Virus record (IMG/VR): IMGVR_UViG_2534682060_000015
Location: 1-28,894 of that record
Origin: a virus
Lineage: Duplodnaviria; Heunggongvirae; Uroviricota; Caudoviricetes
DNA: 28,894 nt
Strand: one strand, 5' to 3'
Every line of letters begins with the position of its first letter. Positions within the stretch are counted from its first letter, which is position 1. The position numbers and the translations under genes are program-made. Shown here in pieces: positions 1,369 through 23,540 of the stretch. The notes under the pieces are model-generated. The model ran no database searches and was not told the origin of the DNA. It worked only from the letters and a program-made list of their open reading frames with translations.

Positions 1369-1444
1369 GCCGATATAGCTCAGTTGGTAGAGCAGCGCAT
1401 TCGTAATGCGAAGGTCGTAGGTTCGACTCCTATTATCGGCACCA
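1369..1444 (+). tRNA. thrW: tRNA-Thr (anticodon CGU)
   Basis: 76-nt sequence GCCGATATAGCTCAGTTGGTAGAGCAGCGCATTCGTAATGCG...GGTTCGACTCCTATTATCGGCACCA with acceptor stem pairing, D-loop AGCTCAGTTGGTAGAGC, anticodon loop with CGT, T-loop GGTTCGACTCC and 3' CCA; its position after proA matches thrW. Confidence 0.88.
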
Positions 1445-1445
1445 T
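1428..1445. repeat. attL core: 18-bp TCCTATTATCGGCACCAT at the 3' end of tRNA-Thr, repeated exactly at 15636..15653
   Basis: Exact 18-bp identity between 1428..1445 and 15636..15653 found by eye; the flanking bases differ (c/t upstream, t/c downstream). Classic duplication of a tRNA 3' end by site-specific integration. Confidence 0.75.
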
Positions 1446-1610: not shown

Positions 1611-2825
1611 GTGAAACTAAACGCCCGCCAGGTGGACACCGTCAAACCTAAAGATAAGCCTTACAAGCTGGCTGATGGTGGTGGTTTGTATCTCTTGATT
1701 AAACCTAATGGCGGCAAATACTGGCGGCTCAAGTATCGTGTAGCAGGCAAAGAGAAGCTGTTAGCGCTTGGCGTGTATCCTGAAGTCACATTGGCCGATG
1801 CTCGGGCAAAACGTGAAGAAGCCAAAAGGGGGATCGCTGGGGGTATCGATCCTATGGAAGCGAAACGGGAAGAAAAGATTGCCCGTGAAACTCAGTTAAA
1901 CAATACATTCAAAGATATTGCCCTTGAGTGGCACAGCAGCAAACTAAAAAAATGGTCTGCTGGGTATGCTTCAGACATCCTGGAGGCTTTCAACAAAGAT
2001 GTGTTCCCTTACATTGGCAAAAAACCAATAGCTGATATCAAACCGCTTGAACTGTTGAATGTGCTACGGCGCATTGAGGGGCGCGGCGCTACAGAAAAGG
2101 CCAAAAAGGTTAGGCAGCGCTGCGGGGAAGTTTTCCGTTACGCAATAGTCACCGGCCGTGCTGAGTATAACCCTGCTCCGGATCTCACCAGTGCGATGCA
2201 AGGGCATGACTCCAATCATTATCCTTTCCTCACACCAAAGGAATTGCCTGATTTCTTCAAGGCTTTGTCAGGATATACAGGAAGCGCGTTAGTAGTTTTA
2301 GCCGCTCGTCTGCTGATTATAACCGGCTTGCGTACCGGCGAACTCCGCGGGGCATTTTGGGATGAAATCAATATCAATAAGGCGGTCTGGGAAATACCAG
2401 CCTCACGCATGAAAATGCGTCGCCCTCATATAGTGCCATTGTCTGAGCAGGCTCTTTCGCTTATTGGGCAGATTAAAGAACTAACTGGCAATTATCCGCT
2501 TATGTTTCCTGGTCGTAATGATCCAAGAAAAACAATGAGTGAGGCCAGCATAAACCAAGTATTTAAGCGCATTGGTTATAACGGAAAGGTTACTGGCCAC
2601 GGTTTCCGACACACTATGAGCACCATTTTGCATGAGCAGGGCTATAACACTGCGTGGATAGAAACGCAGCTCGCGCACGTCGATAAAAACTCAATTCGTG
2701 GCACATACAACCATGCGCAATATCTGGATGGGCGGCGGGAAATGCTTCAGTGGTACGCTGATTATATGGATTCGCTCGAGCATGGCGGAAATGTGGTGCA
2801 TTGTGAGTTCGGAAAATGCGGGTGA
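1611..2825 (+). CDS. int: P4-type tyrosine integrase (404 aa)
   Basis: GTG start at 1611 with AGGAGG at 1596..1601; N-terminus MKLNARQVDTVKPKDKPYKLADGGGLYLLIKPNGGKYWRLKYR is typical of the P4-integrase arm-binding domain; C-terminal catalytic region contains HGFRHT...LAH...Y; located directly downstream of a tRNA. Confidence 0.9.
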   Translation: MKLNARQVDTVKPKDKPYKLADGGGLYLLIKPNGGKYWRLKYRVAGKEKLLALGVYPEVTLADARAKREEAKRGIAGGIDPMEAKREEKIARETQLNNTFKDIALEWHSSKLKKWSAGYASDILEAFNKDVFPYIGKKPIADIKPLELLNVLRRIEGRGATEKAKKVRQRCGEVFRYAIVTGRAEYNPAPDLTSAMQGHDSNHYPFLTPKELPDFFKALSGYTGSALVVLAARLLIITGLRTGELRGAFWDEININKAVWEIPASRMKMRRPHIVPLSEQALSLIGQIKELTGNYPLMFPGRNDPRKTMSEASINQVFKRIGYNGKVTGHGFRHTMSTILHEQGYNTAWIETQLAHVDKNSIRGTYNHAQYLDGRREMLQWYADYMDSLEHGGNVVHCEFGKCG

Positions 2826-5878: not shown

Positions 5879-5928
5879 GTTGTGTACCCCTCATGAAAAA
5901 CAAATGCAGTATGCAGAAAAAAAAATAA

Positions 5929-5980: not shown

Positions 5981-6077
5981 CTTGTTGAAGCAAGGTGCAG
6001 AAACGACGAAACCCGGCAGTGCGTCAACACTAACCGGGCTTCTAACCACCAACGATAACGAGAGTATCGAGGTAGCT

Positions 6078-6614: not shown

Positions 6615-6900
6615 TCTGTCAATCTCTGACCTTAACCGCATTCAGTATGACGAGAAATTTACCGGGAGCGTAAAAGCATTGAGGAAGCAGGCTGGATGTG
6701 CACGACTTATTAAGCCGTTAAGGTGTCATCATGATGATGATCCGCACTTTACCGGACGTATGGTGAATCACTACAAAAAAGGCGTTGAGGTATCCTCTGA
6801 ACAGCTACGAGCTGGTTGCTGTTTCGGCACACCACCGGAATTTAGCGAACTGCTGACCCGTTGCGATTACCGGATCATTCAGGGGGAAAGTCATGGGTAA
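6607..6900 (+). CDS. hypothetical protein (97 aa)
   Basis: ATG 6607 with AGGAGG at 6595..6600; overlaps the previous stop (ATGATTAA); MINLSISDLNRIQYDEKFTGSVKALRKQAG... Confidence 0.55.
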   Translation: MINLSISDLNRIQYDEKFTGSVKALRKQAGCARLIKPLRCHHDDDPHFTGRMVNHYKKGVEVSSEQLRAGCCFGTPPEFSELLTRCDYRIIQGESHG

Positions 6901-7093
6901 TCAGCCAGCAACAATGACAATTACCCTGAATGTGCCAGATGATTTCACCGGGCGCGTACTGGTTTACCTGGATAAAGGGAAAGTGAAATCACAATGCCGA
7001 CTGCGAAATAATGAAATAGTAAGTACGGTAGAAGGCTTTTCTGAACTCTGTATTCGTGCAGGAATAAAACCGGAACTGCTGACAGGAAAATAA
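6893..7093 (+). CDS. hypothetical protein (66 aa)
   Basis: ORF start overlaps the upstream stop; part of a tightly packed + strand operon. Confidence 0.45.
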   Translation: MGNQPATMTITLNVPDDFTGRVLVYLDKGKVKSQCRLRNNEIVSTVEGFSELCIRAGIKPELLTGK

Positions 7094-7097
7094 AACC

Positions 7098-7388
7098 ATG
7101 AAAAAGAAAAATTCTGGCTTTACTGCCAGCGGCCTCTCTCGGTCTGCAATTCGCTCTGGCGATATTTACCGCGACACCAGACGTGGGGGACGAGTGGTTA
7201 TTCGTCACGTTACGCCAGGAAATATCACCTACCGCCGTGAGGCTTACGAATATGACTGCGTAATGCCGCGCCGTCAGTTTGAGCGTGATTTTATTCTGGT
7301 GGAAAACAAAGAACAGGCAGTAGCGAGACGTGCAGCCTCGAGTATTAAAAAAATCCGGGCAATGTTGGTAGCTGGGGGTAAGAAGTGA
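7098..7388 (+). CDS. hypothetical protein (96 aa)
   Basis: ORF with stop overlapping the start of the large ATPase gene (7385). Confidence 0.5.
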   Translation: MKKKNSGFTASGLSRSAIRSGDIYRDTRRGGRVVIRHVTPGNITYRREAYEYDCVMPRRQFERDFILVENKEQAVARRAASSIKKIRAMLVAGGKK

Positions 7389-9517
7389 AAAACGCGCCGA
7401 ATTTAAAATATCAGCCGAAGGATAAATTCACTGAGGCAATCATTTTTGCCGGGATGGATGCTTACGCTCACGCTCAACACTGGATTGAAAGCGAAGGACG
7501 GAAATATGGCGATAGCGTGCCGCCTGTTTACCTGGGGCCAAAGCAACTGGCAGATCTGGCTAATATCCGCATTGTCGACGATGAACGTCGTTTTGCGCGC
7601 GTCTATCTCGCGGGGGAGATCGAACCAATCCAGATTAATGCTATCGCTGAAAGGCTGGCGCTGGCTGGCGTAAAGGATGCGAAATTATACAAAGGTATCC
7701 CTGACCAGGATCCGGAGAACTGGCGCGACTACCTGCAACGGATCCGTGAACAGGCAGAGCGCGGGGAAACCCTGACTGAAGGAATCGGAATAGCTGGTGG
7801 CTCACCCGGTAAAACAGGCCCCATGAAACCGCATATTACCGAAAAAGACGGGGCGCTCTGGTATATCGAGCCAATCCCCAACACCAGGGCAGAGGAGATG
7901 AATTATAAAGAAACCTGGCTGAGTGACCGGATGCGCACGGCAGGTATTGGTAATGACGGAAGGGAGGCGTATCTGATTATTGAAATGATCCCGGAAGGGA
8001 CACAAAAAATTATTTACGAAGCGATGCCGCGCAATGAAATCGGTATGCCCGCAGGATGGGCGCGATTACGTGGGCGGGGAGTTGCAATCACTACCAGCGC
8101 CCATTTATTGAACAAACTGGCGGAATACCTGCAACGTCATGGAGATCGCACGGTGTGGGAGGTCACATCAACAGCAGGTTGGCATTGTGGAGCCTATGTT
8201 ATGCCTGATGGCGAGGTGATTGGTGTGCCTGATCGTCCCGTAGCATTCTGCGGCGGATCTGCCGCCATCAAAGGCTATATTGTCAGGGGCACGGTGCATG
8301 AATGGCGAAATAATGTTGCTTCTCTGATGCGTGGCAATCACTCAATGATGCTTGGGGTGCTGGTCGGGCTGGCAGCCCCGCTAAATTCCCTTGTGGGGGG
8401 TAGTTGTTTTGGTATTCATCTTTTCGCGCAGTCGTCAGCGGGGAAAACCACGACTGTGGAGGCCGCCACCAGCCTTTATGGCGACCCTGAAATGCTTAAA
8501 CTCTCGTGGGATGCCACCCGGCACGGGTTGACAGTGGAAGCAGCTGCACGTAATGACGGTTTTATCCCTATTGATGAAATTGGTCAGGGAGGAAGGGTTA
8601 ATGACATTGCGCAATCCGCCTACAGCCTGTTTAACGGTGTGGGCAGGATTCAGGGGCGCAAGGACGGCGGCAATCGTGCGGTAATGCGCTGGAAAATAGC
8701 GGCACTAAGCACCGGAGAAGAAGATTTTGAAACCTTCCTGTTAAAAGGGGGAATTGCCCCAAAGGCAGGGCAACTGGTGCGACTGCTAAGCATTCCCTTT
8801 ACCGATACAACGGTGTTTAACGGTTATGACGATGGTGATCAACATGCCAGGGCCATAAAGCGACTTTCATCAAATTATTGTGGCGCTGCGGGACGTGAGT
8901 GGGTGCGCTGGTTATCCGCTCACAAGGAGTTGGCTATCAACACCACTTCAGATAAAGAAAATGCCTGGCTGGGAAATCTGCCTGAAAATGCCTCGTCACA
9001 GGTAAGGCGAGTGGCATCGCGATTCGCCATGCTGGATGCAGCCGGAGAGCTTGCTACCGCAATTACTGGCTGGACAGCTGAAGAATGCCGGGAAGCAACG
9101 CAACGGGCTTTTGATGACTGGCTACAGGATTTCGGGCTGGAAAACCGGGAAAAATATCAGGTCATCAGTCGCGCCCGTGACTTTATTCAGCGCCATGCCC
9201 TGAGTCGTTTTCAGCCTTATACCTACGGGAAAAGCAATGGGGATATGGATAACCACTATGCATCCCGTATAAGCAATCTTGCAGGCTATCTTGTCAGCGG
9301 TAAGCGTGAGGATGGAAAACCCGAATATCACATTATCCCGTCAGTGTTTGATAGCGAAATTTTATGCGGTATATCCAGGAACTTTGGGTGTCAGGCGCTG
9401 GAAGAAGCCGGAATGCTGGTTTGTGCAGAACCTGGTCGCTGGACATCGAAAACAGTGAAGATTAACGGAACACAGCAGCGATTTATCGTGCTGATTGATC
9501 AGGCAGAAGACGAATAG
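7385..9517 (+). CDS. large replication protein, P-loop NTPase (primase/helicase-like, 710 aa)
   Basis: Walker A AQSSAGKTT and Walker B IPIDEIG in the central region; size and position (after regulators, before an iteron field) match the replication proteins of P4-like/PICI-type satellites. Could belong to the DUF927-type family, but that is not verified. Confidence 0.6.
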   Translation: MKNAPNLKYQPKDKFTEAIIFAGMDAYAHAQHWIESEGRKYGDSVPPVYLGPKQLADLANIRIVDDERRFARVYLAGEIEPIQINAIAERLALAGVKDAKLYKGIPDQDPENWRDYLQRIREQAERGETLTEGIGIAGGSPGKTGPMKPHITEKDGALWYIEPIPNTRAEEMNYKETWLSDRMRTAGIGNDGREAYLIIEMIPEGTQKIIYEAMPRNEIGMPAGWARLRGRGVAITTSAHLLNKLAEYLQRHGDRTVWEVTSTAGWHCGAYVMPDGEVIGVPDRPVAFCGGSAAIKGYIVRGTVHEWRNNVASLMRGNHSMMLGVLVGLAAPLNSLVGGSCFGIHLFAQSSAGKTTTVEAATSLYGDPEMLKLSWDATRHGLTVEAAARNDGFIPIDEIGQGGRVNDIAQSAYSLFNGVGRIQGRKDGGNRAVMRWKIAALSTGEEDFETFLLKGGIAPKAGQLVRLLSIPFTDTTVFNGYDDGDQHARAIKRLSSNYCGAAGREWVRWLSAHKELAINTTSDKENAWLGNLPENASSQVRRVASRFAMLDAAGELATAITGWTAEECREATQRAFDDWLQDFGLENREKYQVISRARDFIQRHALSRFQPYTYGKSNGDMDNHYASRISNLAGYLVSGKREDGKPEYHIIPSVFDSEILCGISRNFGCQALEEAGMLVCAEPGRWTSKTVKINGTQQRFIVLIDQAEDE

Positions 9518-9549
9518 CACAACCTACGCTCGCAGAGGGTCAAAAATCG

Positions 9550-9822
9550 CGGGATATGCGGGATATCGGGATATGAAAAATATATTGCAGAAATATCAGT
9601 TATTTATGTGTTGTTGTCGTATCCCGCTGTATCCCGCCGTATCCCGGTATTTAGGTTTACGAGTGGTTGTAAAACAAACAAAATAACCGTATCCCGGAAT
9701 GTATCCCGCAATATCTTATTGATGCATAAGCAAAAAAAAACTTACCGGGATATGGCGGGATATGAAAAATCACATAACACCATGAAATAAATAAGTTTTT
9801 TTGTTCATATCCCGATATCCCG
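9550..9822. repeat. iteron field: at least 13 copies of GGGATAT / ATATCCC in both orientations, putative origin of replication
   Basis: Direct GGGATAT repeats at 9551..9575 and 9747..9763; inverted ATCCCG copies at 9621, 9631, 9641 (exact 10-bp spacing), 9691, 9703, 9809, 9817; the 13-mer GGGATATGAAAAA occurs twice; interspersed A/T runs. Confidence 0.6.
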
Positions 9823-9974
9823 GTAAAAAATGTTTTTTTACGCCTTATAGAGTACAGAAAAAAGATTGTTCAAATTTTGTATTACGATTGACTACTGTCA
9901 GCCATCCCACCCGGAAAAGGCATAAAAGCTGACAGGTAACTGACAATGAGACAGTTTTATTTTTACGTGCCGAT

Positions 9975-10532
9975 ATGACGGCAACAATGATGGGGCAGAG
10001 CATGACAAAACTGACCATTAACAGAAAACCGAAAGGTATTTACGGCACGCCGCAGAAAACGACGCAGGCGGCACAGAAGCAGGATAAAACCACATCGGCA
10101 CATAAAGTGATGCCCGGTAACCAGAAAGCGCAGCAGAAGCCCACAGGGGCGACACCGTGGCGGCATATGACCAAACGCCAGCGCAAAAACCGCAGGCGCG
10201 TTAACCGCCTCACTGAGTTGTGGCCTGACTTATTCTGCAGGGAAGCACCGAAGCCACTTAAGGTGGGGATATTCAATGACCTGGTGCAGGATATCGCCGT
10301 CAGGGAGCTGGCATTCGGTCCAGGGGCATTACGTGCGTCACTGGCATCTTATGCGCAGTCACCGCGCTATTACCGAGCCCTGGTTGCTGGTGGGGTGCGC
10401 TATGACCTGAAAGGCCAGCCGTGCGGCGAGGTGACACCACAGAAACAGAACGAGGCAGAAATGCGGCTGATGGCGCTGAATGAGAAGCGCAAACGTCAGC
10501 GCCGGGCAGCAAAGGAGAAAACAGGCGCATGA
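9975..10532 (+). CDS. ProQ/FinO-domain RNA-binding protein with basic N-terminal extension
   Basis: LTELWPDLFCREAPKPLKVGIFNDLVQDIAV...LRASLASYAQSPRYYRALVAGGVRYDLKGQPCGEVTPQ aligns by eye with the E. coli ProQ N-terminal domain (FLAERFPHCF...RPLKIGIFQDLV...[35 protein letters not shown]). Start codon uncertain (ATGs at 9975, 9987, 10002). Confidence 0.7.
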   Translation: MTATMMGQSMTKLTINRKPKGIYGTPQKTTQAAQKQDKTTSAHKVMPGNQKAQQKPTGATPWRHMTKRQRKNRRRVNRLTELWPDLFCREAPKPLKVGIFNDLVQDIAVRELAFGPGALRASLASYAQSPRYYRALVAGGVRYDLKGQPCGEVTPQKQNEAEMRLMALNEKRKRQRRAAKEKTGA

Positions 10533-10816
10533 TTCACGACAGCAAAGCGGAAGCACTGGAAGCGCGTGGTCTGGACCGGAGAGCGGCGGAAAGATGGGCA
10601 GAAGTCATAATGCGAGTGGATGGTGATAAGGCTCGGGAGGAGGCGGCAAAACGTCGCGCGGAATGTATCCGCAAGGCAGCCCGCCCACCAGCAAAGCTGG
10701 ATAATTTCGAAGAGATGCGCGAAACCATCAGCCAGGCACATGCTGGTATGGGATTACATCAGCCCAATGGTAAGGCATTCAGGAAATACCCCGGGGCAAA
10801 AAATTACAATCCATGA
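10529..10816 (+). CDS. hypothetical protein (95 aa), start overlapping the FinO-like stop
   Basis: ATGA overlap at 10529..10532; charged, Ala/Arg-rich; no family recognised. Confidence 0.4.
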   Translation: MIHDSKAEALEARGLDRRAAERWAEVIMRVDGDKAREEAAKRRAECIRKAARPPAKLDNFEEMRETISQAHAGMGLHQPNGKAFRKYPGAKNYNP

Positions 10817-10820
10817 GAGA

Positions 10821-10846
10821 GGCCGGGATTTTACCCGGCTTTTTTG
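10821..10846 (+). terminator. rho-independent terminator
   Basis: GCCGGG (10822..10827), loop ATTTTA, CCCGGC (10834..10839), followed by TTTTTTGT. Confidence 0.7.
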
Positions 10847-11017
10847 TGTCAGCAAAAAAGCCCACAGACAGCAGTGTTGCGGGGGGTGTTTTCAGGTGGT
10901 TGAAGTCATTGGGAAGAACGTGAACATTACGCGCAAATGTTTCACAAATTGCAATAAAATGGATTGTTATTTCAGTTTATGCAATCATGAGCATTGCTTT
11001 GATCAGGAGAGATGATT

Positions 11018-11185
11018 ATGAGAAAAGCCAGCGTAAAACCCGTTTTACTCGCTCGTGAGCAGATTGAAGCATTACAGCGCATCCAGGACGAAGAGCGTCA
11101 AAAATCTGTGCTTGGTGTGGCCCCGTCGATTCATGTTATTGCCAGGCAACTGATGGACAAGGCACTTAAAGAGGTGAAACTGTGA
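11018..11185 (+). CDS. small hypothetical protein (55 aa)
   Basis: Hand-found ORF MRKASVKPVLLAREQIEALQRIQDEERQKSVLGVAPSIHVIARQLMDKALKEVKL with AGGAGA at 11005..11010; stop overlaps the GTG start of the next ORF. Confidence 0.45.
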   Translation: MRKASVKPVLLAREQIEALQRIQDEERQKSVLGVAPSIHVIARQLMDKALKEVKL

Positions 11186-11454
11186 AATTAAATATCAGAG
11201 TGGATAAACGCCAGCTATGGCAGAAAAAAGAGAACAGTGAGGCATTCAGGGATTTGCTGGTGGAAAATCTTCAGCACCGTTTCAGTGGAGAGCTGCCAGA
11301 CGCGCTGGGGAAAAAACTGGAATCTCTGACGGTGGAAATTGGCGATTATGGTTTTGTTGATGTTGAAAGCACGACTGCCAACACAGAAATCGTAAAACAG
11401 GTCGTCAACGATGTAATGAAAACCACGCTTAGCCAGCCATCCTGGCGTAACTGA
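11182..11454 (+). CDS. hypothetical protein (90 aa)
   Basis: Track ORF, translationally coupled to the upstream small ORF. Confidence 0.45.
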   Translation: MKLNIRVDKRQLWQKKENSEAFRDLLVENLQHRFSGELPDALGKKLESLTVEIGDYGFVDVESTTANTEIVKQVVNDVMKTTLSQPSWRN

Positions 11455-11553
11455 ATCCGCAAGGGGCGGTGATTGCCCCTCTCCGCCATACCCACAACGA
11501 ATTCCTTTTTCGCATGAAGTGAATGTTTATCGTATATGCATGAGGTGAGCCAC

Positions 11554-12078
11554 ATGTTGATGAGTAAAGCCGAATACGCCAAATACAAAGGTGTAAGCCG
11601 CCAGACAGTTTACGACTGGATCGAGAAAGGCGAGGTGGTCATGTCGGGTAAAAAAATTGATATGGAGGCTACAGAGTGGCGAAACAGCCCATCATCACAG
11701 GGAAAAGACACTGTTTCTGAAATGTGGCCTGAGAGAACGCTGGAAATGACGTGGGGCGAGTTCTGGAAAGCTGTCAGGGACAGAGACGGTAAAATTCCTG
11801 CGCCAGTAACGGACGATGACATAAAGCAGCGTGTGCAGGATGCAGCCGGGGAATTAGGCTGGGAAGCACACTTTCTTGATGATGGTGCTATCTGCCTTGA
11901 GGATGATGAAGGACAGCATTACTTTGAACAATACAATTTGCGGGGTAATGCCAGGCTGGCAATTCGTATGCTGCGCTGTGAACTCTGCTATGTTGCAGGT
12001 GATTATCCTGATGAACTTGAATCATGGAGCGAGGCAGGACTAAACGCCCTGGCTGAATGGGAGAAAACAGGTCATTAA
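11554..12078 (+). CDS. HTH DNA-binding protein, Nu1/TerS-like N-terminus (candidate packaging-redirection or site-recognition protein)
   Basis: SKAEYAKYKGVSRQTVYDWIEKGEVV resembles the winged-HTH N-terminus of lambda-type small terminase Nu1 (from memory); ATG 11554 with GAGGTGA at 11542..11548; track ORF begins at 11536. Confidence 0.45.
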   Translation: MLMSKAEYAKYKGVSRQTVYDWIEKGEVVMSGKKIDMEATEWRNSPSSQGKDTVSEMWPERTLEMTWGEFWKAVRDRDGKIPAPVTDDDIKQRVQDAAGELGWEAHFLDDGAICLEDDEGQHYFEQYNLRGNARLAIRMLRCELCYVAGDYPDELESWSEAGLNALAEWEKTGH

Positions 12079-12086
12079 CGGCCGCA

Positions 12087-12414
12087 AAAAGTGTCAAGTT
12101 GAGCAGCTTGCAAGGTTGACACTTTACACTCTGAACACGAAAAAGTGTCAACCTCGCTGTAAGCCCCGCCATTACTGGTCTTGCGCCATGTTTGCCACAT
12201 CAAAAGGCCGAAAAAATCGCGAAAAGTGTCAAGTTGCCATGCTTAGAAATGCTAAGTTTTGTTAAGGTTTTTCGCGGAAAAGTGTCAACTCAACCTAACG
12301 GATCTTAACGCTCACGCACAACAGCTGCAGCCAACGTGTAAAGGACTGATGCGAAGCAGGGCAGCTGTCAGCCTGTTATGGTTTGTTATGCCTTACCTGG
12401 GGAAAGTGTCAACC
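12087..12414. repeat. array of six copies of (C)GC(G)AAAAGTGTCAA(G/C) immediately downstream of the HTH gene
   Basis: Copies at 12087..12098 (+), 12116..12124 (inverted), 12141..12153, 12222..12233, 12277..12289 and 12402..12414; the extended 16-mer is conserved in three copies. Confidence 0.6.
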
Positions 12415-12621
12415 GCTACCGTTTCAGAAAGCTTCAATTGCAGAGCGTTGGCAGCACCTGTCAAAACTTGTCACCCGCCGGCACAGCCAGCGGGAATTTT
12501 TTGCTCTAAACGCTCTAAGTTACAGTTGATGTGATCTGTAAACTGCGGTTGCAACTAGTAATCGTATAAAACCATCAGTTGCAGTTTTACCTAACTATAA
12601 TCACAATGATAGTTTATATAA

Positions 12622-14121
12622 TTATACATTGTATGCGAGGTAATCATATAATGCTAAAAGTTTCCGATAATCAGTATGAGATTTGTCCTTAAACTCCCGG
12701 ACATGTTTTTCTAAATCTTCTAAGGGTATATGTTCATCATGAGCATTGAAGAAAATAATATTTTGTAATTTGCTATAACTATCAGAATGTTTAGCGTAAA
12801 TATCTTCAATGGTATGTTCTACTATTCTTTGATTCTTGGGTAACCTTGAATAGTTTAGATTTATTAATCTTTTTTGATTTTTCATTAATGATGTTAAGCA
12901 TTTAACACCTGGGCTGAATTTATGAAAAGCATAAGCTGGGAAATATGATCTTTTATTGATGGTGAACTTGTCAAGCAACTCGACAACATGTGATTCCTTA
13001 TTTGAAATTAGATCAAAATAGTTTTCCATCATCTCCTGAGGTGTTTGCATGTATATTTTTATAGAGTTAACAGAACCGACGGCTAGAACAAGCTCATCAT
13101 TTCTGAGTGTCTCCAAATCCCCAACAAGTTTTACTTTTATGTCTCCACCTTCCTTTATTTTACCAAAGATACTCTCTACTCTGCGTATATCCATTACCGA
13201 AACTGGTAAGTGGAGTTGAGCAAGTTCTTTATATATATCTGAGAAGTTATCTGTAACGATTTTATTAATGCTAATTAACCCTGCATCTTCTACTTCGAGA
13301 TCGTGAGAGACAATGTTTAAATTATCAATACCTTCTTCTCTTTCAATAAGAAGGAAGTTGTTTTTTATTTTTTCTGCAATTTTAGAACGAGGTGGTATGT
13401 ATGAGAATATTGTTTTTAATACTTTTTTTATATTCGGATCACCTATTCTATATCCCATAAATATAATCGGATTATGTATAAACAAGGATAGGAGTTGAGC
13501 ACGAATTAATTCATATTTTTTATCAAAATGAATATAGTCATCACTGGTTATTATTATGGATTCTGGTTTGCTAACGCATCCGTGAATTTTATAAACAGAA
13601 CCATAAGGATTGCTTAAAAGTATATCATTTCCAATAACAGGATTATAACCAATTGCACTTTCGATAAAATTATCATAGTTTGTCGTAATCACAGAGGCAA
13701 TGTTTTTTGAGGCCTTTACTAATTCAGATATTTCATCTTGAACTCCTAATTTTAAATCTGTGATATTAACCACCTGTGAAAGATAGATTTTAAATCTGCT
13801 GATATTTGAGGATATATCTTCCGACTCGTAGTATAAGTCATTGATATATTTGAACTTTCCATTCCTGTCTGCTTTTAGTGTTGCATCAAAAATTTGCTCT
13901 AATTGCGTTGCTACTTTTGGAAGGTCTACAATACCATCTTTATTGCTGTTTTCTCTGACAAGATCTTTATAGAGTTCATTAGAATTTGTCAGGTCAATAC
14001 TAATTTTCTCTAAGAGTGCCGGCCAGCTATAAGAAATTGATAAGTATCTCATGCTGAAACCTGCTCCAACAAATAATATTGGGTGGTTTCTGTAGCCTTT
14101 TAGAAAATCCGTTATATTCAT
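12622..14121 (-). CDS. SIR2-domain protein (499 aa): N-terminal SIR2-like NAD+ hydrolase domain plus unassigned ~300-aa C-terminal domain; candidate defence effector
   Basis: Rossmann motif PILFVGAGFS (aa 14-23), TTNYDNF (aa 146-152) and YKIHG (aa 178-181), the residue pattern of defence-associated SIR2 domains (ThsA/DSR-type Asn and His); GGAGG four nt upstream of the ATG (rc of 14122..14130); strongly AT-rich. Confidence 0.7.
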   Translation of the reverse strand: MNITDFLKGYRNHPILFVGAGFSMRYLSISYSWPALLEKISIDLTNSNELYKDLVRENSNKDGIVDLPKVATQLEQIFDATLKADRNGKFKYINDLYYESEDISSNISRFKIYLSQVVNITDLKLGVQDEISELVKASKNIASVITTNYDNFIESAIGYNPVIGNDILLSNPYGSVYKIHGCVSKPESIIITSDDYIHFDKKYELIRAQLLSLFIHNPIIFMGYRIGDPNIKKVLKTIFSYIPPRSKIAEKIKNNFLLIEREEGIDNLNIVSHDLEVEDAGLISINKIVTDNFSDIYKELAQLHLPVSVMDIRRVESIFGKIKEGGDIKVKLVGDLETLRNDELVLAVGSVNSIKIYMQTPQEMMENYFDLISNKESHVVELLDKFTINKRSYFPAYAFHKFSPGVKCLTSLMKNQKRLINLNYSRLPKNQRIVEHTIEDIYAKHSDSYSKLQNIIFFNAHDEHIPLEDLEKHVREFKDKSHTDYRKLLALYDYLAYNV

Positions 14122-14212
14122 TTGACCTCCGAGATATATTAGCGGTAATCATTAAAATTTGTAAGAACACAGCTCAAGTATGTATTTAGCTGTAGAGATA
14201 AGAATTTACTTG

Positions 14213-15340
14213 TTATTGACCATTTGGATAGTAAATTTTCATAAGCCTCTCTTTTTCTTTGTTGAATTCTTTATCAAAATCAAATTTTTTGTCTAAATTA
14301 GAATGTAAGTCATTTAACGCTTTAACAAGAACCCAAGCGCTGTGGTGGATGAATGGGTTTAATCCAATAATGTTTCCTGCAGAATTATCGTCAACTTTCT
14401 CAACTGCTAAAATCGCTTGGATTTTTTTACAGCTTTCCTGAATATTCCAATCTGAAACATGTAGTAATAATGCAGATAAAGCCATGAGTGGGTTGTTTGC
14501 TTTAATAGATGTAGGGGTGTAACTAATAATCATACGGAGTCGAGGGTGGTAGTCTCGAATCAGTCTCGCCATTCGAGTAGCTATCTCATATTTTTCGTTG
14601 AGAATTGATCTGTCAAATGTTGACGTCCCAGAGTCTTTAATTAATATAGTTCTTGCTTTTTTGACTACTGATTTAAGTCTTACATTCCAAAGCTCAGGAT
14701 TCTCATGACGGTCTAGATAGAATTGAGGATGCTTGAAATAAAGAGATTGATATACTTCCTCGTTGATATCGAACCAACTTTTGTTTATGGCGCTGAGATC
14801 GACAACATAATTATCATTGTTTCTCTTATATCTAATCAATGAGGCCTTTGCAAGGTAGATTATGTGAGGGCTTAAATTAAATGTAAAAGTGCCTTTTTCT
14901 CTTAAATCTAAGAACCATTGGCGCATGTTACGTATATCTTCTTGCGTAAAAATCTTCTCCTGAATTCCCGCACAGACCATAAGACCTATTAAGCGTGTCG
15001 CTTCAGAACCCGAGCGCATAAAATCAATTTGGCCTTCATTTGAAACAACGTTCAACTTATCATCGCCAGTATAAAAATCACAAAATGGGAGGTGAGAGTC
15101 TTTACCTAGATTGTCTCGAAATGCAAAGTGTGCTTGCTTTACAACTTTGCCGTTACTGAGAGATCTTCCTTCCGAAACGTAATAACCACCAGAAACATTG
15201 CATGCCGGGCATTCAACATCCTCTTTAACAAAATCTCTAAAACTTAGAGAAGGATCTGAGTTGCTACGTTCGAAAAGGTTTTCCAACTGCTTAGCATCCA
15301 GCTCACGCTTAAATTTTCTAGAATAGGCCGTTATCGTCAT
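14213..15340 (-). CDS. hypothetical protein (375 aa from ATG 15340; track ORF extends to TTG 15406), upstream partner of the SIR2 gene
   Basis: ATG at 15340 has AAGGAG 6 nt upstream (rc of 15347..15352); no Walker A, TIR or other motif recognised by eye; contains CPAC and PFCDFY cysteine motifs; ~90-bp gap to the SIR2 gene, same strand. Confidence 0.6.
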   Translation of the reverse strand: MTITAYSRKFKRELDAKQLENLFERSNSDPSLSFRDFVKEDVECPACNVSGGYYVSEGRSLSNGKVVKQAHFAFRDNLGKDSHLPFCDFYTGDDKLNVVSNEGQIDFMRSGSEATRLIGLMVCAGIQEKIFTQEDIRNMRQWFLDLREKGTFTFNLSPHIIYLAKASLIRYKRNNDNYVVDLSAINKSWFDINEEVYQSLYFKHPQFYLDRHENPELWNVRLKSVVKKARTILIKDSGTSTFDRSILNEKYEIATRMARLIRDYHPRLRMIISYTPTSIKANNPLMALSALLLHVSDWNIQESCKKIQAILAVEKVDDNSAGNIIGLNPFIHHSAWVLVKALNDLHSNLDKKFDFDKEFNKEKERLMKIYYPNGQ

Positions 15341-15365
15341 TTCGGTCTCCTTTCGAAGGGAGCTT

Positions 15366-15393
15366 AACTTTATCATAGGATGATCATAAAGGG
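15366..15393 (-). promoter_or_regulatory. imperfect palindrome CTTTATCATAGGATGATCATAAAG just upstream of the cassette RBS
   Basis: Arms CTTTATCA / TCATAAAG with one mismatch; holds two TATGAT hexamers on the minus strand; 14 nt upstream of the AAGGAG RBS. Confidence 0.35.
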
Positions 15394-15635
15394 AGCTGTA
15401 CGGCAAACATCACTAAGGTTGGGCCTGAAACACAAATTCCCTAAGTGCAATTTTGACGTCTAACTTACTTGATGTGCTTCAAGGCGGTTCTTACATTGTG
15501 GTATCAACAACAATAGAATGTTTTTTAAACAATTTAGATAGCAACAAGCAAGTCTGGGGGTACTTTTGGGGGTATCTAATGATTGCGTAATAGTTTTTTT
15601 ATATACATATCAATGTGTTGATTTCTACAATTTGT

Positions 15636-15653
15636 TCCTATTATCGGCACCAT
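15636..15653. repeat. attR core: second copy of TCCTATTATCGGCACCAT
   Basis: Exact 18-bp copy of tRNA-Thr 3' end (1428..1445); the 21-bp motif GGGGGTACTT(A/T)TGGGGGTAT lies inside the island near both cores (1560..1580 and 15556..15576). Confidence 0.75.
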
Positions 15654-16261
15654 CAAGAAAATCAATAACTTAGCTTAGCTTCTCTAAGAAATTGTATCTT
15701 CTGTTATCACTTACAAACGCCTATACGTTGTTATGGGCTTTGGTAGTGTAACACGTATGGGCGAGTAGTTCCCAGGCTCAACCTCGTAACAAGTTCCTTT
15801 GAAGCTGGAAGACGTGCCACCGTCTCTAAACCTTCTACCAAAACTCTTAGCAAGATGTTCCACACCTGGCGCGGTGTCCAATGATGCTACACGTCGAGAT
15901 GACGTTGCAGAGGATAAACAGGCTAAATGATGGGAAGAGTAGTTTTAAGTGCATAGTGGATTAAAGCCCACCTCTTCAAAACCTAACTTGATCGGGAAAG
16001 AATCAAGCTCTAGCACGGTTTCGTCCACCGGAGTACAACGGGTGCCTGATAAGAGAAGAACTGCTAAGACTTCATAGCTTTTGTGAAAAAGCCCTTTTTA
16101 GTGGATACGCCTACGGCGCTTATTTTTTGGGGTAGCCCATCAAAGGCGCTTTATGGCTCCTATTGTCTTGAAAATGTATCTTTACTTGTATTGTGTTTTA
16201 TGCGTAGTCTCCCTGTGTAGTATGTAACTTGTTAATTTTCATATGAATACAGAGGCACACG

Positions 16262-16414
16262 ATGAAAAACATTGCAGCTATCAAACGTAATAACCGCAAG
16301 ATTCACGCTCGTAAGTTCCTGTCTACGCCAGAAGGAAAAGCCTGGCTAGAGCGTAAACAGAGAGAGAACGAAGAAAGAAAACTCCTTAGTGAGTTGAAAT
16401 GGCTTAAGGATTGA
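16262..16414 (+). CDS. small basic hypothetical protein (50 aa)
   Basis: Hand-found ORF MKNIAAIKRNNRKIHARKFLSTPEGKAWLERKQRENEERKLLSELKWLKD with AGAGG 6 nt upstream; followed by a long hairpin. Confidence 0.35.
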   Translation: MKNIAAIKRNNRKIHARKFLSTPEGKAWLERKQRENEERKLLSELKWLKD

Positions 16415-16428
16415 ATCACCAGTAGGCG

Positions 16429-16476
16429 CATAACACATCCAGCGATCAAAGATGTGTTTATGCGCCTGATAGTGAA
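16429..16476. terminator. long near-perfect hairpin (16-bp stem) between convergent small ORFs
   Basis: AGGCGCATAACACATC (16429..16445) pairs with GATGTGTTTATGCGCCT (16460..16476); no clear U-tract on either side. Confidence 0.35.
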
Positions 16477-16480
16477 ATTA

Positions 16481-16639
16481 TTAAAGTCGTTTAGTTAACA
16501 TCGCCATTGCTTGAGCAATAATTGCAACAGCGTCCATCTCTTCACTGGAAGCGATGCAAATGCGGTAACTAATAGCCACAATGAATACATCAATAACGAG
16601 AAAGTGAATAGTGTGAAGATGTTTTGAAAGTAAATGCAT
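16481..16639 (-). CDS. small hydrophobic hypothetical peptide (52 aa)
   Basis: Hand-found ORF MHLLSKHLHTIHFLVIDVFIVAISYRICIASSEEMDAVAIIAQAMAMLTKRL with GGAGG 5 nt upstream (rc of 16645..16649); convergent with 16262..16414. Confidence 0.3.
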   Translation of the reverse strand: MHLLSKHLHTIHFLVIDVFIVAISYRICIASSEEMDAVAIIAQAMAMLTKRL

Positions 16640-17033
16640 AACTTCCTCCGGTTTTGGGATAGGAGGATTAGAACATGCATTAAATGATGTTGCAAGAATG
16701 GCAATTTACCCTAATAGTCTACTATTCACCTCAATCTACGTCAACCAATATTTGATGTAGATTTAATTTTCTTTTAAAAACAATATGTTGTTATTTGTTG
16801 AATTTTGGGGTTAGGTTGTTTTTTGAACGTTTTCATCAAGTGTAAAGATACGTTTAGCCTTCATAGTGAGTTCAGTTACTGTCTTTTTCTCTGAAATCGG
16901 CGCAAACGTGATCATCGCTTGAGGTTGCTGCTCTTACTTCTCAAATTGTGATGGAGAACGATAAAGGTTAGAGGGCACTTTTATTTTTTTAAGCAAGTGT
17001 ATAGCATAAGAATAATCTAAAAAGGGAGGTTAT

Positions 17034-17585
17034 ATGCGCAGGTCTGCATTTGTGAGGATGATGATTTTTACAACGTTGTTTGTAGGGGGAACTTCTACCG
17101 CAGTTGCTAAAAACTGCAAAAAAGGAATACCTTGTGGTAACTCGTGTATAGCTGTTGGTAAGACGTGCCGGATTGGCTCTTATGCCCCTTCATCTTATAA
17201 AAATCATTCATACTCTTATCCTTCATCCTCTATTCGAAGCTCGCAATCAAATAATTCACGAAAAACTGAAGGAGTGAAAACGACTCCTGCTGCCAAAAAT
17301 TATCTTTGCCAATACTCTATTGCATCAATCGAAAACGGACGTTTAGGGGCATTACGTGTTCAGGGATACGCACAAGTAACTTTATATGCAGATAGCTTCA
17401 AGGCTAACAGATTAAATGGAACATATTTGATATCGCCAAAACTGAATGCTAACGGCAAGTTTATGATGGCAGATGATAAAAGCAAGGTTTATGCTTATGA
17501 TTCTTGGCTATTAAATTTTGCAATAAGCGATCGTATCACAAGAACGACAGAACAATGGGATCGATGTAAGCTCAATCAAAAATAA
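17034..17585 (+). CDS. secreted hypothetical protein with Sec-type signal peptide (183 aa)
   Basis: N-terminus MRRSAFVRMMIFTTLFVGGTSTAVA-KN (basic n-region, hydrophobic core, AVA cleavage motif); GGGAGG 4 nt upstream; Cys-rich mature N-terminus. Confidence 0.55.
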   Translation: MRRSAFVRMMIFTTLFVGGTSTAVAKNCKKGIPCGNSCIAVGKTCRIGSYAPSSYKNHSYSYPSSSIRSSQSNNSRKTEGVKTTPAAKNYLCQYSIASIENGRLGALRVQGYAQVTLYADSFKANRLNGTYLISPKLNANGKFMMADDKSKVYAYDSWLLNFAISDRITRTTEQWDRCKLNQK

Positions 17586-17603
17586 CAGTTAGAGAAGCTC
17601 TTG

Positions 17604-17660
17604 TAGAGGCATTATTGAGTTATTGATTTTAATATTTTTGTGCCTCTATGGGCTTTTTTT
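17604..17660 (+). terminator. terminator-like hairpin plus T-run after the secreted-protein gene
   Basis: TAGAGGCA (17605..17612) pairs with TGCCTCTA (17641..17648) over a long loop, then GGGCTTTTTTT (17651..17660). Confidence 0.35.
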
Positions 17661-18740
17661 GCCTTTTTGCAAAGTAGGAGAGAGCACAGGAATCGTTAAA
17701 ATTAATTATTGGGGTATTTAAGGTTATTTTCAGGTGGTTTAAGGGTATTAAACTTGATTTAATTGATTAAAATATAAACAGATAGTCCTGTATCTTATTG
17801 ATTTATAAGGTTATTTTTAAATTAAGGTAAATAAAAAATAAATAGCCATAAATAGCTATAAATACATCTAAATACCTTTATCCCTTCCCTTATGGCTAGA
17901 TTGCGAGAAGTGCTTAACGCGATTTTCACCGCCCCCCGATCTGGAAAATCCAGAATCCCCAAATATCAGCAAGGAATTTTCTTGCGTAATCAACATCGTT
18001 TTTACCAATTAAATCATTACACAGAAAGCCTTTCTGTAATGTCTCTCACTAAACTTTCACTAAACACGAGAATGATCGGTTTTATGTCGGATCAGATGCT
18101 AGAAACAGCACCACGTCTCACAAGGGCTGTAAGCGATGAAACCAGTGTTTATGCGGGTGCAGGTCAAAATATGGGCCAAAATCCATTTAACATAATAAGC
18201 GTAATATGCACTAAGGAACACATAGAACGCCTTGAGTTGATGTATAAGGGGAAAAGTGGTGGATTTTTTACGTAGGAGCACGAGAGGGCTTCTATTGACT
18301 TTTGTATGCTATGAAATATAATAGAAGGTTTTTATTTTTATGTTGATAGTGATTGCACATTAAAGATTGAAAGCAAATTTAAACATAAATTTTCAACACG
18401 TGAAAGAACTTGTTCGACAAATGATAGAACGTTTATTGAGCAACAATTTTGCAGTGATGCGCTATATGCCGCATAACATAAGGCTTTGCTGATGATGACG
18501 CAAAAGTGAAGAAAGCTAACATTGCACTTTTTAAGCTACTTTTCATTGGATTTTTACGTAGGAATTACACAGGGATTAATCATCAATTACATTGAATTTA
18601 AGCCTGTTTTAGATGTTTAATTTTGGTAGCAAGAAACACTTTTAGAAGATCATTGCACAGATGTTATGTGATGATTGGATGTAACGGTAGGTCACTGTGA
18701 GCTACCCCTATCAAGTCTGATACCCGATAAGTATAAATAA

Positions 18741-18843
18741 CACCTGGGAAATGAGTTCCGATCTATTTAGGAAATAACCGTGGAAGTGGTTTCCTACCTA
18801 CCTAGGAAATGAGTTCCTATCACCTAGGAAATGATTTCCGACA
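18741..18843. repeat. cluster of palindromic repeats (CACCT)(A/G)GGAAATGA(G/T)TTCC in a long ORF-free region
   Basis: Copies at 18741..18763, 18801..18817 and 18821..18843, plus the related GGAAATAACCGTGGAAGTGGTTTCC between them; each unit carries inverted GGAA/TTCC half-sites. Confidence 0.55.
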
Positions 18844-19704
18844 ATACTATAATTAAACTACAATTAAACTATATAATATAATTCTTTTTTATCTTTATAA
18901 GAATAATTATAGGGATACCCGTTAGGGAGTCTAACGACTATCCCTTAATCTATTGGCATTCGCCAGAACCTTGCACAAGTTAGAGTGTTAGTCGTTAGAC
19001 TGCTTGTCATAACACATAGTTTTTGTTTGTTGATGTTAGTTAGTAGATCTATGTTCGCTAATGCCGCTCACAACGAATATGTAATCTACTATGTGCAAAT
19101 AGCCTACGGCTTGCGTAAGGCTAAATAGTCTTGCGCTGTGCGCTGTGCGCTTCAATAGTTCCATTGATGAGGCTTACGCCAATCTAACGATCATCAATCT
19201 ATTTAAGAGAAAATCTATTGTGCAATACTCTGACGAGTGCAATAACCTTGTGTGCTACGCGTTAGCGATGTTAGCACATAGACACAGACAACAACCAACA
19301 ACAAACAAAAAAGAATGGTTTTAGTAGTTGAAGGTTAAATAAGTTTCTACCGCTTAAATCAAGCCGTAGGCGAGCTAAACGTATATAAGGCAGGGAAACC
19401 TTAGCGGTAATAGATTAGCTCATTATAGAGCTTCTGAGGAGCTTTACAGGTATTTTATAAGGTGTCTGAAATTAGAGTTTATCTATCATCTCCTTTTCAT
19501 ATACCTAACAAATACAAAATAAGCCCCTTAAATAAACCTCTGGCGAGCTAAACTGTCATTACATAAGGGAATGTATTGTTTTTATCAAAACCTCGTTAGA
19601 ACGCGTTTTAGAGAATAAGGAAGAATAGCATCACACAGAAGAGCACGAATTGCTAAGTAAAATCATAACATACTGAAAAATGATTAATATTTTATGGGCG
19701 GGGG

Positions 19705-19733
19705 TTGACAAAAGCCTTTAGTTATGGTAAAGT
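19705..19733 (+). promoter_or_regulatory. sigma70-like promoter (TTGACA, 17-bp spacer, TAAAGT)
   Basis: Perfect -35 TTGACA at 19705..19710, 17-nt spacer, -10-like TAAAGT at 19728..19733; about 120 nt upstream of the small ORF at 19857. Confidence 0.4.
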
Positions 19734-19856
19734 AATATTAGGGGCAGGAAAACATTCCTATCCTCTAAATAATTAAACCAATGCACCGCACTTTGAAGCC
19801 CAAGAGGCTTGCAAGGTGTCTTTTTCTTTTAACCAAATAGAATAGGAGGTTAATTA

Positions 19857-20033
19857 GTGAAGTATTTCACTTCTCAAGATGTAGTTGAAGCCTGGAAACG
19901 TGGTGAGATCAACCGCTTTAGGGTAAGAATGAATAGGAACACAGCGCGACGCTGTGGTTATCCAGAGCGTGAAAAATGTTTTGACGATGCACTAAAAATT
20001 ATTGATGAACTGCGTAAAGCAGAGAAAGAATAA
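19857..20033 (+). CDS. small hypothetical protein (58 aa)
   Basis: GTG start with AGGAGG at 19845..19850; VKYFTSQDVVEAWKRGEINRFRVRMNRNTARRCGYPEREKCFDDALKIIDELRKAEKE. Confidence 0.4.
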   Translation: MKYFTSQDVVEAWKRGEINRFRVRMNRNTARRCGYPEREKCFDDALKIIDELRKAEKE

Positions 20034-20056
20034 TAACAGGAGAAGGAGAAAACCAA

Positions 20057-20245
20057 ATGAATATTAATTTTGATTCTGCAACTTATAACGCGTTGTTAAA
20101 TCGTGCAAAGGCAGAAGGGAAATCAATTCCAAAACTTGTTAATGAATTACTAATTACAGTCCTTACAAAGGAGGAACTAAATGATCAAAAATATCAAAAC
20201 AATTGCCGAAGCGAAAGCCAAATGTCTAAATCAGAAAGATGGTAA
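20057..20245 (+). CDS. ribbon-helix-helix (CopG/Arc-like) DNA-binding protein
   Basis: MNINFDSATYNALLNRAKAEGKSIPKLVNELLITVL follows the beta-strand/helix/helix pattern of RHH regulators; AGGAGAAGGAG upstream. Confidence 0.55.
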   Translation: MNINFDSATYNALLNRAKAEGKSIPKLVNELLITVLTKEELNDQKYQNNCRSESQMSKSERW

Positions 20246-20849
20246 ACAAAAATATGTAGTCGTTGAGCAGTGGTTGAAGATGTTTAAAAAGTGGTTCTCA
20301 CCGTCAGGTAATGAATACACCGCTACACTGCCAGCCGTTGAAATCTATAGCTATATAGCTGGATTCAATGAACAAGGGCAAGAATGTTACGCCACTCAAA
20401 AAACATTATCTAATATTGGAATGGTTAGTGATCGCCAGGTTCGCAATATTATAAATATGTTTGTTGATATGGGAGTTCTTTCTGTAGAGGCTCGGGACGG
20501 GCAAACATCACTCTATAAAGCATTACCATTCACAGATGCACATATTACTCCCCCTGGAGAGTCATCACTACCTGATCCTTCTGAGAAAGAAGACGAATCT
20601 AATGAAATATTGAATGTTTCAGAAATCATCATTGAAGAAGAAACACAGGAATCAGAGTTCCCTGAGCGGCCCGAAATTTTTACTTGGCTTCTTTCCCTTG
20701 ATAAGAAGAAACCACCGCACGAAGAAACAGAAGATTTTGTAAAACGAGCATTAGATTCAAAGAATATCTATCTTGAGAAACAGGCTTTTCACGATCTGAT
20801 AATATCTCTAAGAGAAAAAAGTGAAATATACGATTCAATACCATTCTAA
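20181..20849 (+). CDS. winged-HTH protein resembling N-terminal domains of phage/plasmid replication initiators, acidic C-terminus
   Basis: YATQKTLSNIGMVSDRQVRNIINMFVDMGVLSVEARDGQTSLYK is an HTH-like segment; AAGGAGG 6 nt upstream of ATG 20181; acidic tail. Confidence 0.45.
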   Translation: MIKNIKTIAEAKAKCLNQKDGKQKYVVVEQWLKMFKKWFSPSGNEYTATLPAVEIYSYIAGFNEQGQECYATQKTLSNIGMVSDRQVRNIINMFVDMGVLSVEARDGQTSLYKALPFTDAHITPPGESSLPDPSEKEDESNEILNVSEIIIEEETQESEFPERPEIFTWLLSLDKKKPPHEETEDFVKRALDSKNIYLEKQAFHDLIISLREKSEIYDSIPF

Positions 20850-21032
20850 GGAGAGTAAATGACTTATAACAGCACTACATTTCGTCTTTTGAAATTAAAC
20901 AAAGATTTTGAATTGTTTATCACAAACAATCAATAACAACAGATCGGGCAATACATATGGCAAATGCATTTATGGCGATATTCATCGTAACTATGGCATT
21001 AAGTTTTTATAATCCACATAAAAAGAGGGAAA

Positions 21033-21419
21033 ATGGGAAGAAAGAAAAAGAACAACTTAAAACGTATTGAAAAAAACAGTAATTTCAATTCAACAAGACA
21101 ACGTCCACCGACACATACCAATAACGAAATTCCAGGGGAAGAGATAATCTTCATTTTAGAATCTAACAGCCCACCACTTACAAACGAAGAATTAGAAATT
21201 ATTCAATCAATGGGTGATGGTGTGTATTTCAAACCCAGAACAAGAAAGACAACGATTATAGAACCTGGCACATTAAAGAAATGGCAGCTGTTAAATTTTA
21301 CCAGCTACAGGCACTATATCGGTTTTAATAGTTTCAACAATCAGGTAGGCGGCGTTACAGAAACAGATCTGATGCAGCACCTGATCGACACTCTCGCATC
21401 TAACAAACGTTCAAACTAA
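21033..21419 (+). CDS. hypothetical protein (128 aa)
   Basis: Track ORF; first gene of a tightly packed three-gene block. Confidence 0.4.
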   Translation: MGRKKKNNLKRIEKNSNFNSTRQRPPTHTNNEIPGEEIIFILESNSPPLTNEELEIIQSMGDGVYFKPRTRKTTIIEPGTLKKWQLLNFTSYRHYIGFNSFNNQVGGVTETDLMQHLIDTLASNKRSN

Positions 21420-21436
21420 AAATAAAAGGAACAACA

Positions 21437-21640
21437 ATGATCGACCATATACAGGAAACACAATTATTTCAGATGATCTTGTCTGATGCAAAAAACTATG
21501 CTGAGTTAATTCGGCTGGCAAAAGAAACAGAAGACTACGAAGCATTAGAGCGTTACCGTGATGAAGTGCTGACGCTCAAGACACCTTTTAACATCGTATT
21601 GAATATGATTAATGATGCATTACAAGGAGAATACGCATAA
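21437..21640 (+). CDS. hypothetical acidic protein (67 aa)
   Basis: Track ORF; stop overlaps the next start. Confidence 0.4.
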   Translation: MIDHIQETQLFQMILSDAKNYAELIRLAKETEDYEALERYRDEVLTLKTPFNIVLNMINDALQGEYA

Positions 21641-23524: not shown

Positions 23525-23540
23525 GAAGGAATAAATAATA

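Follow-up and report, generated by a model that had tools for sequence, protein, structure and literature searches.

SIR2 proteins have been divided into immune-type proteins (SIRim) and sirtuins (bioRxiv 10.1101/2024.09.18.613514). Among the described systems, Thoeris consists of ThsA and ThsB, with a SLOG (or Macro) domain C-terminal to SIR2 in ThsA. DSR1 and DSR2 are single polypeptides of 1000 to 1200 amino acids (aa), in which an N-terminal SIR2 NAD+ hydrolase (NADase) domain is joined to a noncatalytic C-terminal region of large helical repeats that is presumed to sense the phage. In SIR2-HerA (Nezha) systems the partner is an ATPase, and PD-T7-2 is, according to its authors, a diverged SIR2/HerA system (PMC9519451). 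SPARSA combines a SIR2-APAZ protein with a short prokaryotic Argonaute (pAgo), KomC is a free-standing subunit of the multigene Kongming system (KomABC), and in Avs5 SIR2 is fused to a STAND NTPase. Here, we analyzed a two-gene cassette in a 28,894-nucleotide (nt) stretch of Caudoviricetes DNA (the window; positions 1 to 28,894 of IMG/VR record IMGVR_UViG_2534682060_000015), which encodes a 499-aa SIR2 protein and a 375-aa protein. The original prediction had read the two genes as one anti-phage system, a SIR2 effector with a sensor partner. We conclude that the SIR2 gene adds a member to the cataloged candidate family PDC-S25, which is ordinary for an island hotspot, and that the two genes are separable modules, their pairing being a lineage-specific juxtaposition in Escherichia coli and Klebsiella and not a conserved two-gene system. 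The cassette has the following features.

12622..14121, minus strand: 499-aa SIR2 gene, stop codon included; member of the PADLOC PDC-S25 family
13237..14121, minus strand: N-terminal immune-type SIR2 (NADase) domain, about aa 1 to 295
14053-14067, minus strand: GAGFS codons, within the SIR2 domain
13678-13680, minus strand: Asn148 codon, within the SIR2 domain
13582-13584, minus strand: His180 codon, within the SIR2 domain
12625..13236, minus strand: conserved C-terminal region, about aa 296 to 499; flexible linker (aa ~310 to 357), then a helical domain
14122..14212, minus strand: intergenic spacer of 91 bp, with the GGAGG ribosome-binding site of the SIR2 gene
14213..15340, minus strand: 375-aa gene, phrog_12525
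15209-15211, 15200-15202, 15092-15094 and 15080-15082, minus strand: codons for Cys44, Cys47, His83 and Cys87 (CxxC…H…C) of the 375-aa gene
aa 136 to 143 of the 375-aa protein (minus-strand gene): IRNMRQWF motif
14351-14377, minus strand: GNIIGLNPF motif of the 375-aa protein
15341..15362, minus strand: 5' leader of the 375-aa gene; its Shine-Dalgarno sequence, AAGGAG, lies inside the 6-bp-stem palindrome CTCCCTTCGAAAGGAG

The PADLOC model PDLC04968 (PDC-S25) matched the SIR2 protein with an E value of 1.9e-139 (464 bits; residues 2 to 498 against profile positions 9 to 515 of 517), and a second PADLOC model, PDLC04967, with an E value of 1.8e-51. Furthermore, the protein matched Pfam SIR2_2 (PF13289) with 80.2 bits at a gathering cutoff of 24.5, and phrog_2695 with an E value of 1.8e-120. 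The SIR2 signature named in the original prediction translates as described (GAGFS, aa 19 to 23; TTNYD, aa 146 to 150, with Asn148; HG, aa 180 and 181, with His180), and GAGFS (including G19, G21 and S23), Asn148 and His180 were invariant in 41 SIR2 homologs from several phyla. Asn148 and His180 align to the catalytic region of DSR2. The best PDB sequence matches were DSR2, ThsA and KomC. On this evidence, the 499-aa protein falls on the immune (SIRim) side of the division from sirtuins (bioRxiv 10.1101/2024.09.18.613514), and homology and genomic context suggest that it acts as an NAD+ hydrolase and anti-phage protein.

That it could instead be a housekeeping sirtuin or deacylase, and the cassette metabolic, is extremely improbable. 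The match is to SIR2_2 and not to the sirtuin family, and it spans the full-length PDC-S25 architecture; all top sequence and structure neighbors are immune NADases, and the fold is nearer to the anti-phage SIR2 proteins than to sirtuins. Moreover, the family sits on prophages, staphylococcal cassette chromosome (SCC)-type sites and islands, its GC content here is very low, and only 21 of 5426 E. coli genomes carry the SIR2 gene.

The SIR2 protein shares its full-length model match, its ~500-aa architecture and the stand-alone habit of its homologs with PDC-S25, but here the gene lies directly downstream of a 375-aa gene that is foreign to the PADLOC definition. Like DSR1 and DSR2, it joins in one chain an N-terminal SIR2 NADase domain to a noncatalytic C-terminal region that is presumed to sense the phage, and DSR2 was the best PDB sequence match (E = 2.8e-10). 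However, membership was rejected, since the protein has 499 aa and only its residues 138 to 237, about 100 residues of the SIR2 core, align to DSR2. Thoeris was rejected as well: no SLOG (or Macro) domain follows SIR2, no TIR match was found in the neighbor with Pfam and PADLOC, and the ThsA model of type I Thoeris matches only at positions 102 to 275 of 478. SIR2-HerA (Nezha) and PD-T7-2 were excluded by a neighbor without a Walker A motif or a PADLOC or Pfam ATPase match, and SPARSA by the lack of a pAgo or APAZ match in PADLOC and Pfam, the similarity to PsSIR2 being confined to the SIR2 domain. Neither the KomABC arrangement nor a fusion of the Avs5 type is present here, and Kongming was rejected on its defining features.

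In the wording "undescribed or poorly described," "undescribed" is too strong for the SIR2 gene, because PADLOC already catalogs it as the single-gene candidate PDC-S25. The literature that we found only lists PDC-S25 in strain inventories; no experiment on PDC-S25 was found, nor any validation for the RefSeq accessions or for a SIR2 system borne on a phage-inducible chromosomal island (PICI).

As predicted, the C-terminal half of the SIR2 protein was not recognizable: a profile search of the PDB gave no relative, and structure comparison gave no separate fold match. Its last ~200 residues are nevertheless kept across the family, with 15 invariant columns. We propose that the SIR2 protein would be held inactive until this region detects an infection cue and/or drives oligomerization. 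The N-terminal SIR2 domain, with its GAGFS NAD pocket, Asn148 and His180, would then hydrolyze NAD+, and the loss of NAD+ would lead to growth arrest or abortive infection. Activation by assembly is proposed by analogy, because ThsA, KomC, Avs5 and human FAM118B are all activated by filament formation.

The PDC-S25 family is very widespread. Clustered at 90% identity, the full-length homologs of ~500 aa from Firmicutes, Bacteroidota and Proteobacteria form at least 1654 clusters, and they include members about 48% identical to the SIR2 protein of the window. Staphylococci, listeriae, lactococci and enterobacteria carry the family in their prophages, and it is also present at SCC-type sites. 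Stand-alone homologs were found at 86%, 73%, 57% and about 48% identity, in prophages, on small islands and beside rlmH. The 86%-identical homolog lies in a prophage, and its neighbor is unrelated to the 375-aa protein (this divergent 394-aa gene was rejected on comparison as a homolog of the 375-aa family). The 73%-identical homolog lies in a prophage between an antiterminator-Q-like gene and holin/lysis genes; further stand-alone homologs were found in Flavobacterium and Pectobacterium. In Staphylococcus aureus (loci L008 to L010), the SIR2 homolog is directly downstream of a SPOUT methyltransferase gene, presumably rlmH/orfX, the SCC attachment site. No neighbor was conserved across 85 SIR2 loci; the recurrent neighbors were lineage-specific phage core genes, and 80 IMG/VR loci likewise gave phage core genes only, such as Enc34-type single-stranded DNA-binding protein and DNA polymerase A genes. 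Thus, the single-gene organization expected of PDC-S25 was found. We also noted that in one prophage lineage (IMG/VR loci L101 to L121) the SIR2 homolog lies between the Enc34-type and the family-A DNA polymerase genes.

The pairing of the two genes was tested both ways, from the 375-aa family outward and from the SIR2 family outward. Starting from the 375-aa family, a PDC-S25 SIR2 gene was found at none of 72 species-level genome loci, including loci whose 375-aa homolog is 62 to 66% identical. On viral contigs (IMG/VR), 34 loci of this family were found; four of them are the same cassette at ≥96% identity, and only one of the 30 others has both families. This locus, L185, is also the only one among 110 viral loci to hold both families outside the ≥96%-identical cassette. 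Starting from the SIR2 family, about 80 noncassette loci were without the 375-aa family, among them those of the 86%- and 73%-identical homologs. Furthermore, nucleotide homology to relatives ends within a few bases of each gene's own coding sequence (CDS), and the 91-bp spacer is therefore specific to this cassette. The conserved co-occurrence across lineages that is expected of an obligate two-gene system was thus not found. The reading of the two genes as effector and sensor partner in one system was therefore not supported: the word "partner" is not established for the 375-aa gene, because 72 other species have a member of its family but not this SIR2, and the SIR2 homologs stand alone.

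Several observations weigh against separability. In E. coli the two genes were always inherited together (20 to 21 genomes), their two alleles co-diverged (nucleotide identity of 96.2% for the 375-aa gene and 95.0% for the SIR2 gene), and a piece of each gene survives even as decayed relics in about 550 E. coli genomes. The genes are codirectional across the 91-bp spacer, in which a consensus scan detected no terminator or strong promoter and only a weak promoter-like match. In L185 (positions 693-3526), a PDC-S25 SIR2 gene 27% identical to that of the window is followed after 50 bp by a 31%-identical 375-aa homolog, an adjacency that could reflect a functional link. As to the anti-phage role itself, no experiment on the 375-aa family, as on PDC-S25, was found in the literature, and this role is argued from homology and context.

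The L185 SIR2 protein is a clear family member (E = 1.1e-160 against PDLC04968). Its locus lies at the end of a GC-rich prophage beside a baseplate-spike gene, both genes having a GC content of about 0.40 against a background of 0.63, and the gene order is the reverse of that in the window. In the closest examined relative of the L185 375-aa homolog, P0104 (37% identical), no SIR2 gene adjoins. Two deep, differently arranged adjacencies could have arisen by chance among hotspot cargo; by a rough, unquantified estimate, this sample would be expected to hold at most one adjacency of that kind by chance.

Together, these data bear on the possibility that the cassette is a genuine two-gene system in this lineage, in which the 375-aa protein would sense infection, or restrain or license the SIR2 protein, which would deplete NAD+, both genes being modular and each able to work with other genes elsewhere. 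We regard this as unlikely. It would account for the shared strand, the 91-bp gap without a terminator, the strict co-inheritance and co-divergence in E. coli and Klebsiella, and the independent L185 locus, where deeply divergent members of the two families adjoin in reverse order. Distant 375-aa homologs beside Gabija (codirectional at gaps of about 70 to 230 bp in four loci) or OLD/AAA_15 ATPases, as detailed below, would also fit a portable accessory. Against it stand the empty counts from both directions (0/72 genome loci, 1/30 noncassette viral loci, none of about 80 noncassette SIR2 loci even at 86% and 73% identity), P0104, the differing gene order, the breaks in homology at each CDS end and the placement of PDC-S25 by PADLOC under its PDC-S names, which denote single-gene candidates.

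We consider it probable, with some reserve, that these are two separable, horizontally acquired cargo genes, the PDC-S25 SIR2 protein likely acting as a lone sensor-effector and the 375-aa gene being an independent defense-related gene or at most a facultative accessory. The two genes occupy the attR-proximal cargo slot of a 14.2-kb satellite-type island at the tRNA-Thr gene (thrW), where the 375-aa gene would have been brought beside the SIR2 gene in one enterobacterial lineage. As this case shows, neighboring cargo genes in an island hotspot should be taken for a single system only with caution. The E. coli copy of PDC-S25, on a small clonable island, offers a convenient entry point for validation of this family and for finding what its C-terminal domain senses.

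In about 550 of 5426 complete E. coli genomes, only nt 195 to 295 of the 375-aa gene and nt 1385 to 1500 of the SIR2 gene are left of the cassette, as unannotated relics; UTI89, ATCC 25922, ABU 83972 and NRG 857C are examples. In HG994850 (L092; NZ_HG994850.1, 3852779-3859373), the sole genome in which both relics were located, they keep their original order at a distance of about 6.4 kb. The intervening DNA consists of an IS1 remnant, vat (an autotransporter toxin gene) and a gene for a MarR-family regulator. Since the relics flank vat DNA in this genome, the vat island at thrW appears to have replaced the interior of the cassette.

The 375-aa protein belongs to phrog_12525. In agreement with the description of the upstream protein as lacking Walker A, TIR and pAgo features, searches of Pfam, PADLOC, NCBIfam and the PDB (with the single sequence and with a profile) gave no significant match; DUF7516 remained below threshold in Pfam. 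The predicted structure (predicted local distance difference test [pLDDT] score of 91) has a small β module with the putative zinc site, plus helices, and no structural relative of the model was found. Invariant or near-invariant in 56 homologs were Cys44, Cys47, His83 and Cys87, the IRNMRQWF motif and a GNxxGxNPF motif; the CxxC…H…C residues probably form a zinc site. When 1.84 billion cluster representatives were searched exhaustively with a profile, only 212 relatives were retrieved. All of these were single-domain, with no fusion to an effector domain (0/212), and the full-length members, of about 340 to 440 aa, gave a single full-length match. The family is rare, uncharacterized and of fixed architecture, without a structural relative, and it is the more original lead of the pair.

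The 72 genome loci of this family, one per species, are spread over alpha-, beta- and gammaproteobacteria and cyanobacteria, several of them on plasmids. Their surroundings were highly variable, without a conserved neighbor, and no paralogy was found between the 375-aa protein and the unknown genes that flank its homologs. Among 103 noncassette loci, a complete Gabija system was present within about 5 kb in 12, and 24 had an OLD/AAA_15-type ATPase gene nearby. In four of the Gabija loci the genes are codirectional, the 375-aa homolog following gajB after about 70 to 230 bp, and in three they converge at about 130 bp. The homologs beside gajA/gajB or OLD/AAA_15 ATPase gene pairs (L029-L035, L047, L048, L052, L054, L063, L074 and others) are distant, with 27 to 32% identity, and mostly alphaproteobacterial; their association with Gabija takes at least three different arrangements. 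We found no description in the literature of a family-level association of 375-aa homologs with Gabija or OLD. One further locus adjoins RnlAB and Kiwa; other neighbors were YhcG nuclease and RES-Xre genes, integrases and transposases, and homologs also occur in the accessory region of the phage-plasmid SSU5 and on E. coli plasmids. Such surroundings are a signature of defense-island or mobile-element cargo and support a defense-related role.

The SSU5 and plasmid loci could also be read differently, as those of a mobile-element establishment or anti-defense gene, which would be no more than a passenger next to the SIR2 gene here. In SSU5 the homolog lies in an accessory or early region among small plasmid-type genes (DUF1380, Eaa), homologs also occur on plasmids and near relaxase genes, and no enzymatic or effector domain was recognizable in the 375-aa protein. 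Still, this explanation is very unlikely, given that chromosomal homologs frequently lie next to Gabija, OLD-type systems, toxin-antitoxin pairs and further defense genes, and that the gene shares the cargo slot of a satellite-like island with a defense candidate. In addition, a 375-aa protein of fixed architecture is above the size of most known anti-defense proteins.

Most likely, the 375-aa protein is an autonomous defense-island protein. Tentatively, and with rather low confidence, the family might be a structurally unprecedented portable defense module that either acts against phages on its own, as a new defense protein, or serves varied effectors as an accessory or sensor. In the latter case, the module would plug into the PDC-S25 SIR2 here and in L185 and into Gabija/OLD-type ATPase systems in alphaproteobacteria, and in the cassette its effect would be to tune the NAD+ depletion by SIR2 or to widen its range.

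Both minus-strand open reading frames (ORFs) of the cassette were present as predicted, with one correction. The upstream ORF (14213..15406) has 397 aa when read from a TTG, but we place the true start at the ATG at 15340, which gives 375 aa, because RefSeq uses the same start, Met1 is invariant in 56 homologs and an AAGGAG Shine-Dalgarno sequence lies 7 nt upstream. We observed that AAGGAG supplies the 3' side of a perfect hairpin with a 6-bp stem, CTCCCTTCGAAAGGAG (coding strand, 15347-15362), a palindrome that a plus-strand scan flagged as terminator-like. The hairpin could occlude the ribosome-binding site of the 375-aa gene.

The position of the cassette in the island was also as described. 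Its genes are the last two ahead of attR, the 18-nt repeat at 15636-15653 lying ~300 bp away; they run antiparallel to the remaining island genes (minus versus plus strand) and are AT-rich, with a GC content of 0.315 (SIR2 gene) and 0.368 (375-aa gene) compared to 0.484 for the island backbone. The window starts with proA, followed by a tRNA-Thr gene at 1369-1444. The 18-nt direct repeats at 1428-1445 and 15636-15653 delimit an integrated 14.2-kb island (1428-15653), and in a strain carrying the second, tandem island alone, homology to the window begins at the 15636-15653 repeat. The island has the following landmarks.

1428..1445, plus strand: attL of island 1, within the 3' end of tRNA-Thr (thrW); 18-nt TCCTATTATCGGCACCAT
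1611..2825, plus strand: tyrosine integrase of island 1 (P4-type); Pfam Arm-DNA-bind_3, Phage_int_M and Phage_integrase
15636..15653, plus strand: attR of island 1 and attL of the second tandem island; 18-nt TCCTATTATCGGCACCAT, 100% identical direct repeat (D12)

The backbone of island 1 is on the plus strand and extends to about 12.5 kb. Besides the integrase it encodes AntA, an Ash-family protein, DUF4222, a DUF927 primase-like protein, ProQ/FinO and PerC, a gene set that is satellite-like (PICI/P4-like). At 5013-6614 we detected a 533-aa ORF with a C-terminal Ash-family domain, which is not annotated in the similar island of strain E21845/O/A. The backbone is closed, immediately ahead of the AT-rich cargo, by short direct-repeat pairs with the core AAAAGTGTCAA (12083-12101 and 12218-12236; 12138-12152 and 12275-12289), and a different 21-nt repeat pair adjoins attL (1462-1482 and 1526-1546). 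The repeats at the backbone end and on the attL side may bind a recombinase or regulator and so mark where cargo enters.

The second element (15654-28894; GC content of 0.39) is unrelated to island 1 and stands in tandem with it at the duplicated att site; in strain OkiPb01707 it is found by itself at tRNA-Thr. It has its own integrase gene (27617-28894, minus strand), and its annotations include a major capsid protein, a flotillin-family protein and a phage baseplate protein. It may be a capsid-encoding satellite. At 18742-18843 it contains three copies of the 22-nt repeat ACCTGGGAAATGAGTTCCGATC (82 to 100% identical), two of them directly tandem, which look like iterons or operators.

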